A stretch of DNA of 64,000 nucleotides from Escherichia phage LYE-01, in the sequence record PQ303785.1, one strand, 5' to 3'. The notes under the pieces were generated by a model. That model saw only the letters and a program-made list of their open reading frames with translations, made no database searches and was not told the DNA's origin. How positions within the stretch are numbered: position 1 is the stretch's first letter; the number at the start of each line of letters is the position of its first letter. Of the stretch, positions 2,626-42,536 are shown piece after piece. Made by a program: the position numbers and the translations under genes.

Positions 2626-3168
2626 ATGAAATTTAATTATACTCCTGAATACACACCAAATCCGGCAGCTAAACTGATTGATTTTGATGTTGTAAGCACT
2701 TATGTATGCCCTGTTAAACCACTGGAAATTAAGGAACCTACTATGACTACCGCTATTGAAATCGGCAAAACCTACAAACTGGTTGAAACTGAAATTAAAA
2801 CTAATGCCTTAATTTCCGGCCATAAAATTTTGACTGATGTTTTTGGCGAAGGCGAATTTACCGTTGAAGACTTTGAAAAAAGTAAATGGTTTACTAAATC
2901 TTATATTGTCCACGGTCGTCGTTTAGACAATAACAAAATAGAGAAAATCCTGGTTTATGAAGCAGAGTTCATCCTGTTCCAAGAAGTTGAAGAACAAGAC
3001 CCTACCGACCTTCTAACTCGTGCAGTAGCTATTAAGACCCCATTTATTTCGGTCTGCGGTTGGGTAACAGACCAGTGGGTTGAAGACGGTGTTGAACTTC
3101 TAAACGTTGTTCATGCAGGTGATTTTAGCGTAGTACCTCGTAGTGCGGTGGTAGCTATTTTAAATTAA
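2626..3168 (+). CDS. MotB paralog (motB.1 position)
   Basis: 180 aa; C-terminus CGWVTDQWVEDGVELLNVV closely matches C-terminus of the next ORF. Confidence 0.55.
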   Translation: MKFNYTPEYTPNPAAKLIDFDVVSTYVCPVKPLEIKEPTMTTAIEIGKTYKLVETEIKTNALISGHKILTDVFGEGEFTVEDFEKSKWFTKSYIVHGRRLDNNKIEKILVYEAEFILFQEVEEQDPTDLLTRAVAIKTPFISVCGWVTDQWVEDGVELLNVVHAGDFSVVPRSAVVAILN

Positions 3169-3170
3169 TA

Positions 3171-3200
3171 GTTTACAAACTCTTGGGACCGGAGTATAAT
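3171..3200 (+). promoter_or_regulatory. early promoter for motB
   Basis: GTTTAC 3171-3176, TATAAT 3195-3200; -10 sits in the loop of GGGACC/GGTCCC. Confidence 0.6.
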
Positions 3201-3244: not shown

Positions 3245-3733
3245 ATGATTATTAATATTGGTGAAATTGCTCGTGTATCTGATAAATCTCGTTCTAAAGC
3301 AGCAGGAAAATTGGTCGAAATTGTAAGCATTCAGCTTAAACACGGCGTTAAAGATGAAGATTCTGAAGTAAAAGTGCGTATCATTCCTAAAGATGGAAAG
3401 TCTAAACCTCAGTTTGGCTATGTTCGTGCGAAATTTCTTGAATCTGCGTTTTTGAAAGCTGTTCCCGCTAAAGGAATTGAGACGATTGATACTTCGCATG
3501 TAGGTGTAGACTTTAAGTGGAAACTCGGTCAATCTATTAAGTTCATTGCTCCTTGCGAATTTAAATTCATTCCAGATGATGGAAAGGCTGTTTATACTCG
3601 TGCTATGTGTGGATACATTACCGATCAATGGGTAGAAGATGGTGTTAAGTTGTACAACGTGGTATTTTTAGGAACATACAAAGTCATTCCTGAAAGTTGG
3701 ATTAAACACTATAGAAATGCGCTCTATGCATAA
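3245..3733 (+). CDS. motB: MotB-like modifier of transcription
   Basis: 162 aa (T4 MotB length), early promoter upstream, position between dexA and gene 39. Confidence 0.65.
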   Translation: MIINIGEIARVSDKSRSKAAGKLVEIVSIQLKHGVKDEDSEVKVRIIPKDGKSKPQFGYVRAKFLESAFLKAVPAKGIETIDTSHVGVDFKWKLGQSIKFIAPCEFKFIPDDGKAVYTRAMCGYITDQWVEDGVKLYNVVFLGTYKVIPESWIKHYRNALYA

Positions 3734-4113: not shown

Positions 4114-4329
4114 ATGAAACGTAAAATTGTTCAGAACTGCACTAATGACGAATTTGAAGATGTATTATTCGATCCAGATTTGGTAGTAGTTCAAAAGGAA
4201 CACACCATTAAGTTTACCCACTTGACTTCGGTTTATGTGTATGAAAAGGTTGGTGATAAACAACCAATTTACGGTGTATTTCGTGAAATTACTGAAGATG
4301 GCACAACTTACTGGAAGGAAATTTATTAA
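4114..4329 (+). CDS. hypothetical 71-aa protein, possibly Cef (tRNA-processing modifier)
   Basis: 71 aa equals T4 cef length; synteny only. Confidence 0.4.
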
Positions 4330-4748
4330 TGGCTATTAAATTTGAAGTTAATAAATGGTATCAATTTAAAAATAAACAAGCTCAAGAAAATTTTATTAAA
4401 GACCATACTGATAACGGAATCTATGCACGACGTTTAGGTATAGAACCTTTTAAAATTTTAGATGTTGACTATTACGGGCGTCCTACTAAAATTGTGACAT
4501 CTACTGGCACAATTGGATATTCAACATGTGGTACAGTCATTGACGAAAACTTTATCTGGCTCTCTACTAACGAAGCTGAGTTCTTTGATGAAGTTGAAAA
4601 TCCATATCAGGCATCTGAAGAGCAAGGGCAGGAAGAGCAAGAACAAATAGAAGATTTCACAGAATTCCCTGTCATGAAAGTTACTATTGAAAATAATGAA
4701 CAGGCATGGTCCTTGTATCAGATGTTGAAAGCACACTTTAAGGAATAA
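4329..4748 (+). CDS. hypothetical 139-aa protein, possibly GoF/ComC-alpha
   Basis: Size and position resemble T4 goF; acidic C-terminal tail. Confidence 0.4.
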
Positions 4749-4750
4749 TT

Positions 4751-4927
4751 ATGCCAATGTATGATTATAAATGCCAATCCGAAGATTGTGGGCATGAATA
4801 TGAAAAAATTAAAAAGATTTCTGAACGAGAAAATGATGTTTGCCCTAAATGTCATCGTTTGTCTACTCGTCGGCCTTCTGCTCCTAAGCATGTGAATGGT
4901 GGATTTTACGACTTACTTAAAGGGTAA
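4751..4927 (+). CDS. small zinc-ribbon protein (58 aa, two CxxC pairs)
   Basis: Not in ORF track (under 60 aa); ATG 4751 to TAA 4925-4927; CQSEDC ... CPKC. Confidence 0.5.
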   Translation: MPMYDYKCQSEDCGHEYEKIKKISERENDVCPKCHRLSTRRPSAPKHVNGGFYDLLKG

Positions 4928-4929
4928 TT

Positions 4930-5301
4930 ATGTTTAAAATCGGTAAGAAATATCGTGTTCGCGAAGGTGAAGAAAAGAAATATCTACTTTCTTCTATTTA
5001 TAGGAATAGTTCTATTAATACTGTAATATCTACAAGCGAATTTATCGTTGAAGATATGAAAGGTCATAATGTTACAATGATTAGTACAGCATCTGGAAAT
5101 GATGGAAAAATTCTTCACAGCTTTCAGAGTAATGTTCTAATTTATGATGAAGAATTTGACTTCTTCGAAGAAGTTACAGAAGATTTTGATTTTGGATGCA
5201 CCATCACTATGAAATCTGGTGACCCTCTTTCATTTACGGTTAAAGATGAAAGAAGTCGCTTGAGAATTATTAGTCTTCTTCAAGCCATTAAATTTGAGTG
5301 A
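4930..5301 (+). CDS. hypothetical protein
   Basis: ORF track, ATG 4930. Confidence 0.5.
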   Translation: MFKIGKKYRVREGEEKKYLLSSIYRNSSINTVISTSEFIVEDMKGHNVTMISTASGNDGKILHSFQSNVLIYDEEFDFFEEVTEDFDFGCTITMKSGDPLSFTVKDERSRLRIISLLQAIKFE

Positions 5302-5305
5302 AATT

Positions 5306-5566
5306 ATGAAATATGTTAATCGTTCTATCGCGGCATTAGTATTAGCAGTATCTTTAGTAGGATGTACTGATGCTGATAATGCAACCAAAGTTTTGTCTTC
5401 AAGTGGGTTTACTAATATTGAAATCACTGGATACAATTGGTTTGGTTGCTCTGAAAATGATTTCCAACACACTGGATTTCGTGCTATTGGACCTACTGGG
5501 CAGAAAGTAGAAGGAACCGTGTGTTCTGGTCTATTCTTCAAGGATTCGACTATCCGTTTTAAATAA
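5306..5566 (+). CDS. putative lipoprotein (lipobox LVGC)
   Basis: Track ORF starts TTG 5294; from ATG 5306: MKYVNRSIAALVLAVSLVGC, signal peptide plus lipobox cysteine. Confidence 0.5.
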   Translation: MKYVNRSIAALVLAVSLVGCTDADNATKVLSSSGFTNIEITGYNWFGCSENDFQHTGFRAIGPTGQKVEGTVCSGLFFKDSTIRFK

Positions 5567-5583
5567 AAGGCCTTCGGGCCTTT
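5566..5583 (+). terminator. hairpin terminator AAAGGCC-TTCG-GGCCTTT
   Basis: GC stem, UUCG loop, followed by TTTAGCTTT. Confidence 0.55.
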
Positions 5584-5584
5584 A

Positions 5585-5608
5585 GCTTTATGATTACTGG
5601 AGTATAAT
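5585..5608 (+). promoter_or_regulatory. candidate promoter for gene 39
   Basis: TATAAT 5603-5608 preceded by TAGCTTTA (MotA-box-like); no GTTTAC. Confidence 0.4.
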
Positions 5609-5635
5609 ATTCCCGAAACCAAACGAGGATAAGTG

Positions 5636-7453
5636 ATGATTAAGAATGAAATTAAAATTCTGAGCGATATTGAACATATCAAAAAGCGTAGCGGCATGTA
5701 CATTGGCTCTTCCGCTAATGAAATGCATGAGCGCTTTCTGTTTGGTAAATGGGAAAGTGTTCAGTATGTACCTGGTCTTGTTAAGCTTATTGATGAAATT
5801 ATTGATAACTCAGTAGATGAAGGTATTCGTACTAAGTTTAAATTCGCAAATAAAATTAATGTTACTATCAAAAACAATCAAGTAACAGTTGAAGATAACG
5901 GTCGTGGTATTCCACAAGCGATGGTTAAAACACCTACCGGTGAAGAAATTCCTGGTCCAGTTGCTGCATGGACTATTCCAAAGGCAGGTGGTAACTTTGG
6001 TGATGATAAAGAACGCGTCACTGGTGGTATGAATGGTGTTGGTTCTAGTTTAACTAACATTTTTTCTGTGATGTTTGTCGGTGAAACTGGCGACGGTCAA
6101 AATAATATTGTAGTTCGTTGTTCAAATGGCATGGAAAATAAATCATGGGAAGATATTCCTGGAAAATGGAAAGGAACACGTGTTACTTTCATTCCTGATT
6201 TTATGTCATTTGAAACTAATGAGCTATCTCAGGTTTATCTTGACATTACACTAGATCGTCTCCAGACACTTGCGGTAGTTTATCCTGATATTCAATTTAC
6301 CTTTAATGGTAAAAAGGTTCAGGGTAATTTTAAGAAATATGCACGCCAATATGATGAACACGCTATCGTTCAAGAACAAGAAAATTGTTCTATTGCGGTT
6401 GGTCGTTCACCTGATGGTTTTCGTCAATTAACATACGTTAATAACATTCATACTAAGAATGGTGGCCATCACATTGACTGCGTTATGGATGATATTTGTG
6501 AAGACCTTATTCCACAAATCAAACGTAAGTTCAAAATTGATGTAACTAAAGCACGTGTTAAAGAATGTTTGACTATCGTTATGTTTGTTCGTGATATGAA
6601 AAACATGCGATTTGATTCTCAAACTAAAGAGCGTTTGACTTCTCCATTTGGTGAAATTCGTAGTCATATTCAGCTTGATGCTAAAAAGATTTCACGTGCT
6701 ATTTTAAATAATGAAGCAATTTTAATGCCAATCATTGAAGCTGCCTTGGCTCGTAAATTGGCGGCAGAAAAAGCAGCAGAAACTAAAGCAGCTAAAAAGG
6801 CTTCTAAAGCCAAGGTTCATAAACATATTAAAGCGAATCTTTGTGGTAAAGATGCTGATACTACTCTTTTCTTGACTGAGGGTGATTCTGCTATCGGATA
6901 TCTTATTGATGTTCGTGATAAAGAACTTCATGGTGGTTATCCATTGCGTGGTAAAGTTCTCAACAGTTGGGGTATGTCTTATGCTGATATGCTTAAAAAC
7001 AAAGAACTGTTTGATATTTGCGCAATCACTGGATTGGTTCTTGGTGAAAAGGCTGAAAACTTAAATTATCATAATATTGCAATTATGACCGATGCTGACC
7101 ATGATGGTCTAGGAAGCATTTATCCTTCTCTGCTCGGATTTTTTAGTAATTGGCCAGAACTGTTTGAACAAGGAAGAATTCGCTTCGTCAAAACTCCTGT
7201 AATCATCGCTCAGGTCGGTAAAAAACAAGAATGGTTTTATACAGTCGCTGAATATGAGAGTGCTAAAGATGCTCTACCTAAACATAGCATCCGTTATATT
7301 AAAGGACTTGGCTCTTTGGAAAAATCTGAATATCGTGAGATGATTCAAAACCCAGTATATGATGTTGTTAAACTTCCTGAGAATTGGAAAGAGCTTTTTG
7401 AAATGCTCATGGGAGATAATGCTGACCTTCGTAAAGAATGGATGAGCCAGTAG
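5636..7453 (+). CDS. 39: DNA topoisomerase II large subunit, uninterrupted 39+60 type
   Basis: 605 aa; GyrB-like ATPase N-terminus through Toprim region ending EWMSQ; DADHDG-LGSIY is continuous. Confidence 0.9.
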   Translation: MIKNEIKILSDIEHIKKRSGMYIGSSANEMHERFLFGKWESVQYVPGLVKLIDEIIDNSVDEGIRTKFKFANKINVTIKNNQVTVEDNGRGIPQAMVKTPTGEEIPGPVAAWTIPKAGGNFGDDKERVTGGMNGVGSSLTNIFSVMFVGETGDGQNNIVVRCSNGMENKSWEDIPGKWKGTRVTFIPDFMSFETNELSQVYLDITLDRLQTLAVVYPDIQFTFNGKKVQGNFKKYARQYDEHAIVQEQENCSIAVGRSPDGFRQLTYVNNIHTKNGGHHIDCVMDDICEDLIPQIKRKFKIDVTKARVKECLTIVMFVRDMKNMRFDSQTKERLTSPFGEIRSHIQLDAKKISRAILNNEAILMPIIEAALARKLAAEKAAETKAAKKASKAKVHKHIKANLCGKDADTTLFLTEGDSAIGYLIDVRDKELHGGYPLRGKVLNSWGMSYADMLKNKELFDICAITGLVLGEKAENLNYHNIAIMTDADHDGLGSIYPSLLGFFSNWPELFEQGRIRFVKTPVIIAQVGKKQEWFYTVAEYESAKDALPKHSIRYIKGLGSLEKSEYREMIQNPVYDVVKLPENWKELFEMLMGDNADLRKEWMSQ

Positions 7454-13148: not shown

Positions 13149-13170
13149 GGCCGTATGAATTCATACGGCC
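13149..13170 (+). terminator. perfect 22-nt palindrome before ndd
   Basis: GGCCGTATGAATTCATACGGCC (contains GAATTC); no U-run. Confidence 0.35.
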
Positions 13171-13202
13171 TTGGAGTAGAAAATAATTTAGAGGAAATTA
13201 AC

Positions 13203-13658
13203 ATGAAATATATGACTGTTACTGATTTGAATAATGCAGGCGCAACTGTTATTGGTACAATCAAGGGCGGTGAATGGGTTTTTGGAACTCCGCATAAAGA
13301 CATTTTGTCTAACCCTGGATTTTACTTTTTAGTGAGTAAATTTGGTGGTCCATTTGATAGTCCGTGTGTATCTGCACGATTTTATGTAGGTAATCAGCGT
13401 TCTAAGCAAGGATTCAGTGCAGTTCTAAGTCATATTCGTCAGCGTCGGTCTCAGCTTGCGCGTACTATTGCAAATAACAATGTTCCATACACAGTATTTT
13501 ATCTACCTTCTTCTAAGATGAAACCTCTGACGACGGGATTTGGAAAAGGTCAGTTAGCTTTAGCGTTTACTCGTAATCATCATTCTGAGTATCAAACGCT
13601 TGAAGAAATGAACCGTATGTTGGCTGATAACTTTAAATTTGTTTTGCAGGCATATTAA
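13203..13658 (+). CDS. ndd: nucleoid disruption protein Ndd
   Basis: From ATG 13203 (after GAGGA) 151 aa equals T4 Ndd; track start 13155 lies inside a palindrome. Confidence 0.7.
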
Positions 13659-13745: not shown

Positions 13746-13901
13746 GTGAATATTGCAAAATTATTAGGAGTTATTTCATTTATTTGTTGGATAGTAGCAT
13801 GTGTTTTAACTATCTGTATTGATGCCAGCAGCGTGTTTTCGCAAGCTTTAGCTCAGGGTATGTGTGCATATTTAACATTTGCGTTGTTATCTAATGATTA
13901 A
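13746..13901 (+). CDS. ac: Ac-like small membrane protein (51 aa, GTG start)
   Basis: 51 codons from GTG 13746; single hydrophobic helix; position between stp and gene 52. Confidence 0.55.
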   Translation: MNIAKLLGVISFICWIVACVLTICIDASSVFSQALAQGMCAYLTFALLSND

Positions 13902-14034
13902 GAAAATCTTGGGCTATTCATTAGCCCTTGCTACTTTATTGGTAGCACTATATTATGGAGTAATGTTCGGATTAATTCAAGTCGTGCTTTTCATTTCTGA
14001 TGTTATTATGGCACTACATTCACTAGTATGGTAA
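13894..14034 (+). CDS. small membrane protein (46 aa; 52.1 position)
   Basis: MIKKILGYSLALATLLVALYYGVMFGLIQVV...; ends 5 nt before gene 52. Confidence 0.4.
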   Translation: MIKKILGYSLALATLLVALYYGVMFGLIQVVLFISDVIMALHSLVW

Positions 14035-41392: not shown

Positions 41393-41896
41393 ATGGATTT
41401 ACAGCTTATTACTACTGAAATGGTCGTTGAAGCATATGGTGATACTACAGATGGGATTTCTGTATTTAAAGGAAATCGTCGAGTTGGATATATCACCGAT
41501 CTTAAGAAAGATTTAGCTAAGCAAGTTAAGCGGAAAACGACCATCAAAGAATATCGAAATCGTCGTCTTGAGCAAGCCCGTGATATGCTTCCTGATGCAG
41601 TTGAGGAGATGAAAGTCTTTTTAGAAAATCAGCTTGCGAAATATGATTGTGAAGTATTCATTAATCAGACTCAACCTAATGTTCATATTAATAACTGTAA
41701 ATGCTACATCATTGTTAATCCTTTGACAGAAAAGCATCGTCTTGGAATTAGTAATCCAAATCGTAGCGCATCAGATATGGCAGAAGATGTTGAGGCATGC
41801 TTTAAAATTTCTAAATCTCCAGCTGAACATCATATTTTAATTAACGGTCTTTCTCAAGACGATATTGTAGAGGTTATTAAAACTTTATGCATGTAA
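41393..41896 (+). CDS. alc: Alc (host transcription unfolding protein)
   Basis: 167 aa from second ATG; position after gene 63. Confidence 0.7.
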   Translation: MDLQLITTEMVVEAYGDTTDGISVFKGNRRVGYITDLKKDLAKQVKRKTTIKEYRNRRLEQARDMLPDAVEEMKVFLENQLAKYDCEVFINQTQPNVHINNCKCYIIVNPLTEKHRLGISNPNRSASDMAEDVEACFKISKSPAEHHILINGLSQDDIVEVIKTLCM

Positions 41897-42240
41897 GTAA
41901 TTTTACAGCTGGATTGCTATTACTTGTAATAGCATTTGGCGGAACATCTATTATTTTAAAAAATAAGGTAGAAAGATTAGAAACATCGGTTACTGAAATT
42001 ACAAAAACGGCCAATGAAAACGCTTTAGCATTAGATAATTTGCGAATTCAGTATAATTATATTGATGCGATGAATAATAAAAATCGTGAGGCAATTGCTG
42101 CTATTGAGCGTGAAAATGAAAAACTGCGCAAAGATGCAAAGAAGGCGGATGTGGTGGCTCATAAGCCAGGATTGGTTGAAAAACAAATCAACAACTCCTT
42201 CAACAAGTTCGCAGAAGACATCCAGGACCTTTCTAAATGA
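41887..42240 (+). CDS. inner-membrane spanin (Rz-like; pseT.3 position)
   Basis: 117 aa; N-terminal transmembrane segment then coiled coil. Confidence 0.55.
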   Translation: MHVSNFTAGLLLLVIAFGGTSIILKNKVERLETSVTEITKTANENALALDNLRIQYNYIDAMNNKNREAIAAIERENEKLRKDAKKADVVAHKPGLVEKQINNSFNKFAEDIQDLSK

Positions 42241-42536
42241 TTAAACTATCGGCAGTAATATTATCTATTGGTCTTCTAGTTGGTTGTTCGACAAAGCCTC
42301 TAGAAGTAAAGAAAGAAACAGTTCATCCTAATTGGCCTGTGCAAATAAAGTCATATGATGAAGCTAAACTATCTTGGCAAGTTAAAGTCATTGATGGTAA
42401 AGCTTGGGTCGGTATGCCATTTGAAGATTCCCAGGAATTTCGTATTTGGCTTAATGATGTAAAACGATATGTACATGACCAAAAAACTATGATATGTTAT
42501 TATCGTCAAGAGCTAAAAGAGGATAAATGTAAATGA
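42237..42536 (+). CDS. outer-membrane lipoprotein spanin (Rz1-like; pseT.2 position)
   Basis: MIKLSAVILSIGLLVGCSTKP signal plus lipobox; adjacent to the i-spanin. Confidence 0.55.
   Translation: MIKLSAVILSIGLLVGCSTKPLEVKKETVHPNWPVQIKSYDEAKLSWQVKVIDGKAWVGMPFEDSQEFRIWLNDVKRYVHDQKTMICYYRQELKEDKCK

Follow-up and report, generated by a model that had tools for sequence, protein, structure and literature searches.

Gene 39.1 of T4-like phages encodes a probable envelope lipoprotein that is truncated in the T4 reference sequence

Bacteriophage T4 is the best-studied large phage, and about half of its genes are without a function. Most of its superinfection exclusion is accounted for by two proteins, Imm and Sp. 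T4 Spackle (gp61.3) is described in PMC9586334 as an early protein, exported to the periplasm, which inhibits the gp5 tail lysozyme by binding it and not by catalysis. The same paper (PMC9586334) describes Llp of phage T5 as a lipidated, early protein with a Cys11-Cys58 disulfide, which binds the periplasmic face of FhuA.

Here we compare with these systems an open reading frame (ORF) of Escherichia phage LYE-01 that an earlier note had singled out as an early-expressed putative lipoprotein gene. The DNA analysed, referred to below as the window, is a stretch of 64,000 nucleotides (PQ303785.1). The ORF is the last of a closely spaced run of genes on the same strand, and its surroundings are organized as follows.

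4114..4329, plus strand: cef, in the gene run
4329..4748, plus strand: goF, in the gene run
4751..4927, plus strand: 39.2 (zinc ribbon), in the gene run
4930..5301, plus strand: goF-like ORF, 123 aa
5299..5301, plus strand: TGA stop codon of the goF-like ORF, 4 nt before the ATG of 39.1 (read from the sequence)
5306..5566, plus strand: 39.1, encoding the gp39.1 ortholog of 86 aa and ending in TAA (ORF listing, phages BP32 and PP01, PHROG 902, dN/dS)
5566..5583, plus strand: hairpin AAAGGCC-UUCG-GGCCUUU with a C(UUCG)G tetraloop, directly 3′ of the 39.1 stop
5585..5608, plus strand: middle-type promoter of gene 39 (GCTT, 14 nt, TATAAT; read from the sequence), outside 39.1, at its downstream boundary
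5633..7453, plus strand: gene 39, 606 aa, start at 5633 or 5636

Over 1 kb around the ORF, identity is 100% with Escherichia phage BP32 and 97-99% with hundreds of Tequatrovirus genomes; the source phage of the window is a Tequatrovirus. In phage PP01 the homologous ORF carries the annotation 39.1, within the gene order motB - cef - goF - 39.2 - hypothetical - 39.1 - 39 - rIIA.1 - rIIA. Both the ORF listing and the sequence give 86 codons, from ATG 5306 to TAA 5564-5566. The product matches PHROG 902 (a family of unknown function) over residues 1-86 with E=9.5e-37, as do all of the 132 relatives scanned, and the 86-aa ORF of resequenced T4 is 97.7% identical to it. We therefore identify the ORF as the T4 gene 39.1 ortholog; PMC9697503 lists the T4 product as UniProt Q01435. 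The gene is thus already catalogued, as T4 39.1 and as PHROG 902; the earlier note had missed the identity with T4 39.1. The name "Lipoprotein" has already been given to some of the relatives in UniRef and GenBank. A literature search found no functional study of T4 gp39.1 or of gene 39.1.

Comparison with PP01 revealed 10 synonymous differences and 1 non-synonymous difference, and comparison with T4 GT7 revealed 16 and 2, respectively, with a dN/dS of 0.03 in either case; for other genera the ratio lies between 0.1 and 0.3, but there the synonymous sites have reached saturation. Strong purifying selection (dN/dS about 0.03 among close relatives) thus marks the ORF as a real gene. A protein 100% identical to its product is labelled "heat shock protein" in MZ502379 (Escherichia phage vB_EcoM_Shinka, 4337-4594), a name that received no support from the searches run.

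As in T4, gene 39.1 of LYE-01 lies between 39.2 and 39, and the same hairpin and gene 39 promoter follow it. The window differs from T4 in having the extra goF-like ORF between 39.2 and 39.1, and an unsplit gene 39 of 606 aa. In T4, the mobA/60.1 insertion and the translational bypass of gene 60 divide its counterpart between gene 39 (about 516 aa) and gene 60. The goF-like ORF, which is absent from T4, matches the same PHROG as goF (phrog_622, E=4e-28) and is therefore a goF paralog. The Shine-Dalgarno/ATG context that stands upstream of 39.1 in T4 (cttaaagggta.ttATG) here precedes the goF-like ORF instead, and the arrangement suggests either a precise insertion in LYE-01 or a precise deletion in T4.

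The 4-nt spacing between the goF-like ORF and 39.1 suggests that their translation may be coupled; a weak GAG element resembling a Shine-Dalgarno sequence is located at 5296-5298. The hairpin behind the 39.1 stop folds as RNA with -10.7 kcal/mol, and its z-score against shuffled sequences is only -1.44, which is not unusual. In SA21RB, G28 and fPS-2 it bears the annotation of a rho-independent terminator; a terminator consensus scan of the window did not call it, because its T-tract is short. It can be described only as a weak terminator, at the end of an early unit, or as an RNA-stabilising hairpin. The site in SA21RB that is homologous to 5585..5608 is annotated as a T4 middle promoter.

Upstream of 39.1, a strong sigma-70-like promoter (TTTACA-17-TATAAT) is present at 3172-3200. 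It sits between two plus-strand ORFs, 2626-3168 (180 aa) and 3245-3733 (162 aa), which have the C-terminal motif G(W/Y)(V/I)TDQWVEDGV(E/K)L(L/Y)NVV in common and look like paralogs, MotB and a MotB-like protein.

In a time-resolved omics study, T4 39.1 was placed in the class "early-RNA_late-Protein" (PMC9697503, supplementary files 4 and 6). The RNA of the T4 ortholog is early, and its protein is detected and accumulates during infection. The early expression proposed in the earlier note therefore holds for the T4 ortholog. The note had also placed the ORF just upstream of gene 39, and this is correct: the start of gene 39 (5633 or 5636) lies past the hairpin and gene 39's own middle promoter.

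The T4 reference genome presents the gene in another form. In NC_000866, 39.1 is annotated as 5398..5595, a 65-aa product read from a downstream ATG. If this annotation (the evidence in its favour) were taken as it stands, gp39.1 would be a 65-aa cytoplasmic protein without a signal peptide. We compared NC_000866 5560-5680, window 5290-5400 and T4 GT7 385-495 (in the numbering of the fetched stretches). The 39.1 region of NC_000866 reads MKYISRSIAALVLAVSLINSTDAD followed by a stop; relative to T4 GT7, AATTAATAGT replaces AATAGGATGT and one extra T is present. This cluster of substitutions and the 1-nt insertion destroy the lipobox (LINS, not LIGC) and shift the frame.

The reference variant was found only in M89919, X06220, AF158101 and NC_000866, whereas 11 other genome records (9 of T4 or T4T, plus RB55 and RB59) differ from it (93.4% identity). 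The only one of these read directly, T4 GT7, contains an intact 86-aa 39.1 lipoprotein ORF and a 39.2 of 58 aa. The latter length is also that of 39.2 in the window (4751-4927), as opposed to 45 aa in the T4 reference, where the gene ends early (…LVSAS-stop versus …LVSAPKHVNGGFYDLLKG in GT7; NC_000866 stretch 5702-5839, GT7 222-398). This early stop looks like another error of the reference sequence, and the truncated 65-aa form of 39.1 is most likely, judging from the compared sequences, a Sanger-era sequencing error. Against substitutions and an extra T that are specific to the reference, and against the intact gene of resequenced T4 (GT7), a 65-aa cytoplasmic gp39.1 is hardly credible, and for the window it is refuted by the intact ORF of LYE-01 itself.

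The features predicted within the 86-aa product are the following.

5306..5362, plus strand: predicted lipoprotein signal peptide, residues 1-19, with n-region MKYVNR and h-region SIAALVLAVSLVG (sequence, PS51257-type rule)
5354..5365, plus strand: predicted lipobox L17-V18-G19-C20 (conservation of the Cys in 280 relatives)
5363..5563, plus strand: mature domain, 67 aa, predicted as one helix and four beta strands (AlphaFold2)
5447..5449, plus strand: codon of Cys48, half of the predicted disulfide (co-variation with Cys73)
5522..5524, plus strand: codon of Cys73, the other half of the predicted disulfide (co-variation with Cys48)

The N-terminus reads MKYVNRSIAALVLAVSLVGC, with predicted cleavage before the Cys, which is followed by TD. 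Two positive charges (K2, R6) are found within the first six residues, the h-region consists of 13 hydrophobic residues and is uncharged, and Cys20 (codon 5363-5365) is the predicted lipidated residue 1 of the mature protein. We applied a PROSITE PS51257-type rule (charged n-region, uncharged h-region, lipobox [LVI][ASTVI][GAS]C, Cys at 15-35) to the 1157 starts which the window offers in six frames and which are followed by 40 or more codons before a stop. Only six starts obeyed the rule. Two of these belong to the 39.1 ORF (ATG 5306 and an upstream TTG at 5294) and another to the o-spanin gene at 42237. ATG 5306 is preferred over TTG 5294 because all relatives start there and the n-region that results is canonical.

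Two very hydrophobic ORFs of 51 aa were also observed on the plus strand, at 13746-13901 and 13879-14034, just downstream of an Ndd-like gene (13155..13658). The first of them passes the lipobox rule (…ICWIVAC, then V), yet it resembles a plain membrane helix and not a lipoprotein.

Within the gp39.1 family, 233 of 281 relatives passed the full rule, the Pfam lipid attachment site model LPAM_1 matched 26 of 132, and 95% of 280 aligned relatives have the lipobox Cys. The signal peptide ending in a lipobox Cys that the earlier note had read from the letters is thereby supported, both by the rule and by the conservation of Cys20; its reading of the product as a lipoprotein precursor is well supported, by the family-wide lipobox together with a co-varying pair of Cys residues (see below). 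The note had also pointed out that the LVGC lipobox recurs in the Rz1-like protein at 42237. This is literally true (MIKLSAVILSIGLLVGC), but the link it implied is a coincidence, LVGC being among the three commonest lipobox forms of the family (LSGC 21, LVGC 20, LAGC 20; T4 itself has LIGC).

The residue at position +2 is Thr in 87% and Ser in 7% of the 280 relatives (Thr or Ser, 94%), and that at +3 is Asp or Asn in 76%. In LYE-01 gp39.1, Thr occupies +2, and Asp is found at +3 and not at +2, so that the Lol-avoidance signal (Asp at +2) is absent. With Thr or Ser instead of Asp at +2, transport by Lol to the inner leaflet of the outer membrane is therefore expected, and the product is probably located in the outer membrane by the +2 sorting rule, which was established for E. 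coli and may not hold for every host of the family.

Predicted lipidation is the rule in the gp39.1 family but not absolute, because about 3% of the relatives have a plain transmembrane or signal segment instead of the lipobox with its Cys, and one relative (P0150) has a leader resembling that of type IV pilins (GFTLVEMLIVLG). Three others (P0087, P0119 and P0121) carry a cytoplasmic extension followed by an N-terminal transmembrane segment. These non-lipidated variants suggest that the target may be soluble, or reachable from either membrane.

Among the 280 relatives, Cys48 and Cys73 are both present in 267 and both absent in 9; only 4 are discordant. Such joint gain and loss points to a periplasmic disulfide, since co-variation of Cys residues is a disulfide signature, from which a periplasmic protein would follow. 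A second pair of Cys residues, at positions 74 and 81, co-varies in about 8% of the relatives, which is a further argument for an oxidising compartment. Nearly invariant polar residues in the same alignment (D52, T56, K79, T82 and R84) are candidates for a binding surface.

AlphaFold2 predicted a helix at residues 23-32 (mature 4-13) followed by four strands, the helix being packed on the strands. The pLDDT was 77 when the full length was modelled and 81 for the mature part, for which 132 sequences were used. In this model the lipidated Cys and the fold are only about three residues apart, and the mature domain is therefore expected to lie flat against the membrane surface. A Foldseek search of PDB structures with the model gave no significant match, and the sole matches in a viral structure library were uncharacterised members of the gp39.1 family. 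Sequence searches of gp39.1 against Pfam, NCBIfam, PADLOC and PDB yielded nothing above noise, and when 132 relatives were scanned against Pfam, the model of the lipid attachment site was all that came up. By these sequence comparisons the mature domain has no match to an enzyme family and no recognisable catalytic signature.

A small fold of this kind could also act on an enzyme of the host: a cystatin/PepSY-like domain would then block a conserved periplasmic protease or peptidoglycan hydrolase, and the envelope or phage proteins would be stabilised during infection. We regard the inhibitor role as unlikely. Neither lysozyme-inhibitor families nor BamE/SmpA_OmlA gave a Pfam match for the query at E up to 1, and they were absent among the best 25 of 26 Pfam families for the 132 relatives at E up to 0.1.

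A tblastn search detected gp39.1 in 1070 phage records, whose hosts include Klebsiella, Enterobacter, Serratia, Yersinia, Edwardsiella, Aeromonas and Vibrio; a Burkholderia jumbo phage is also among them. Among Tequatroviruses, identity of the protein is 95-100%. When 1.84 billion representatives were searched with a profile, 2232 clusters (50% identity) were obtained at E<=0.001, 1128 of them at <=1e-10. When 185,579 species genomes were scanned with one narrow pattern, we found two loci only, a lower bound in view of the strictness of the pattern. Both encode homologs with a lipobox and lie on phage-like contigs in metagenome-assembled genomes, one of them adjoining a large polymerase-like ORF. 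As far as this narrow-pattern scan goes, the family appears to be phage-borne.

The position of the gene within the cef-goF-39.2-39.1-39 block is kept in PP01, VR20, WSPA, phiA85, Merlin, PEi20 and T4. The block, in the form cef-goF-39.2-(variable)-39.1-(variable)-39, occurs in Tequatrovirus, Gaprivervirus, Jiaodavirus, Moonvirus and Muldoonvirus, and is retained in about 6-7 genera of T4-like phages; in Kanagawavirus PEi20 the block is kept, but hoc and not 39 comes next within the stretch fetched. Arrays of small unannotated ORFs contain the gene in RB43, in one phage each of Aeromonas and Vibrio, and in a jumbo phage of Burkholderia. Homologs on temperate-phage contigs stand beside Q antiterminator/RdgC/SSB genes in one case and beside integrase/excisionase genes in another, positions which are early or accessory. 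No recurrent partner gene was found in six phage groups outside Tevenvirinae.

One relative (P0106) apparently contains two tandem copies of the gp39.1 domain. Domain fusions in longer homologs were considered and rejected, those that were read being miscalls of an upstream start.

In another reading, gp39.1 would serve as an anti-defence or immunity-like protein, which would neutralise the periplasmic part of an envelope-acting host or prophage defence, a bacteriocin or a T6SS toxin. No PADLOC match was obtained, known defence or counter-defence genes were not linked to 39.1, and conservation as strong as that found here (dN/dS 0.03-0.3) is unusual for the proteins of an arms race, so that we consider such a role quite unlikely.

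We propose the following model. Sec would export the precursor of gp39.1, Lgt would lipidate it at Cys20, and cleavage by signal peptidase II and N-acylation would follow; the mature 67-aa part would form a compact periplasmic module of one helix and four strands held by the Cys48-Cys73 disulfide. Taken jointly, these steps are very probable on the sequence features described above. The Lol system would then carry the protein to the inner leaflet of the outer membrane, where the domain would lie flat on the membrane surface. There gp39.1 may act as a stoichiometric binder or blocker of a common component of the Gram-negative envelope, or of incoming phages, and its binding may protect the infected envelope, through superinfection exclusion or through resistance to lysis from without.

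The earlier note had suggested superinfection exclusion or envelope remodelling, which would be a reasonable guess. For a domain that is small, bears no enzyme signature and is seated at the membrane, the most economical role would be to bind or block a target. Tequatroviruses use different receptors (OmpC, Tsx, FadL and OmpA). The identity of 95-100% across phages with such differing receptors, and the occurrence of gp39.1 in phages of distant Gram-negative hosts, argue that the target is universal and not a particular receptor. We assign a probability of about 0.35-0.4 to the reading of gp39.1 as a protective or exclusion binder, which would resemble T5 Llp and T4 Spackle in its logic but act on a different, more universal target. 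Against it stand the lack of a recurring partner gene, the roughly 3% of relatives without a lipobox, the E. coli origin of the +2 rule and the fact that, in the searches run here, no homology or experiment ties the family to any function. The dominance of Imm and Sp in T4 also leaves little room for a third exclusion factor.

In a bolder form of this reading, which is speculative and in our judgement rather unlikely, gp39.1 would stand for a large class of periplasm-anchored phage effectors (about 2200 clusters in T4, jumbo and temperate phages) that bind a conserved target, such as peptidoglycan, a lipid, a machine of the Bam, Lpt or Tol-Pal type, or a conserved part of the incoming tail. 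If so, gp39.1 would be the third envelope-protection or exclusion factor of T4-like phages, overlooked in part since its signal peptide is hidden in the T4 reference sequence.

The gene is among the more widely conserved T4 genes of unknown function, and its product is predicted to act at the envelope, the site where phages repel competitors and control lysis. That the true T4 product would be an 86-aa lipoprotein, and not a 65-aa cytoplasmic protein, alters the design of cloning, tagging and assays. Should gp39.1 bind a conserved envelope target, it would reveal a new mechanism of exclusion or envelope stabilisation and provide a small natural ligand for a target in the outer membrane or periplasm. 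It is a catalogued gene with a secure prediction of localisation, and a clean and testable candidate for a new phage factor that acts on the envelope.

The lipoproteins of the lysis apparatus offer one comparison, and the window contains a complete spanin pair.

41887..42240, in the window: i-spanin-like ORF, adjoining the o-spanin gene
42237..42536, in the window: o-spanin (Rz1-like; T4 PseT.3), MIKLSAVILSIGLLVGC, lipobox LVGC

Like o-spanins, gp39.1 is a (predicted) outer-membrane lipoprotein with a similar lipobox, and its size is spanin-like. Spanins are, however, late and extended proteins whose o-spanin gene adjoins or overlaps that of an i-spanin, in contrast to gp39.1, which is early, predicted to be globular and without a partner gene; no gene for a membrane-protein partner stands beside 39.1 in the ORF listing of the window. 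Weak matches to "Rz-like spanin" PHROGs were obtained for a few relatives, but the weak matches of the family are to lipoprotein families, and those to Cor were shown to sit at the signal-peptide end (see below). With a full pair of spanins already encoded at 41887..42240 and 42237..42536, no overlapping or adjacent i-spanin gene, a predicted fold that is not extended and RNA that is early, it is extremely unlikely that gp39.1 is an o-spanin or another late factor of envelope disruption.

A likeness in kind exists to T5 Llp and the Cor proteins, which, as gp39.1 is predicted to be, are small phage lipoproteins of about 62-67 mature residues, made early and with one disulfide (Cys11-Cys58 in Llp, Cys48-Cys73 predicted in gp39.1). 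Llp acts at the outer membrane, on its periplasmic side, as gp39.1 is predicted to do. PHROG 1119 ("Cor superinfection exclusion protein") was weakly matched by 67 of the 132 relatives. In most of them the match spans residues 1-18 to 1-32, and in one 1-45, a region made up mainly of the signal peptide and the first mature residues. When only the mature part of gp39.1 was used as the query, the sole PHROG match was 902, and hhalign of the family profile with mature T5 Llp (NC_005859) gave a probability of 1.2% over 9 columns. Membership in the Llp/Cor family was rejected on these grounds, the matches lying at the signal-peptide end and homology of the mature domains being undetectable.

The genomic settings differ as well: T5 llp adjoins oad, the gene of the receptor-binding protein, whereas 39.1 lies among early genes beside a topoisomerase gene; and 39.1 occurs in phages of many host genera, whereas the criterion for Llp/Cor is phages with one common receptor. 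A strict receptor plug, which would switch off the outer-membrane receptor of its own phage by binding to the periplasmic face, would fit the size class, lipidation, single disulfide and early expression that gp39.1 has in common with T5 Llp, as well as the weak Cor matches in half of the relatives. The location of these matches, the hhalign result, the lack of an adjacent receptor-binding protein gene (unlike llp/oad), the near-identity across Tequatroviruses of differing receptors and the conservation in phages of distant hosts all argue against it, and we hold this possibility to be very unlikely.

T4 Spackle is a further system for comparison. It is not a lipoprotein, unlike the predicted gp39.1; it offers, by analogy, a model of how gp39.1 might act on a component of the incoming phage.
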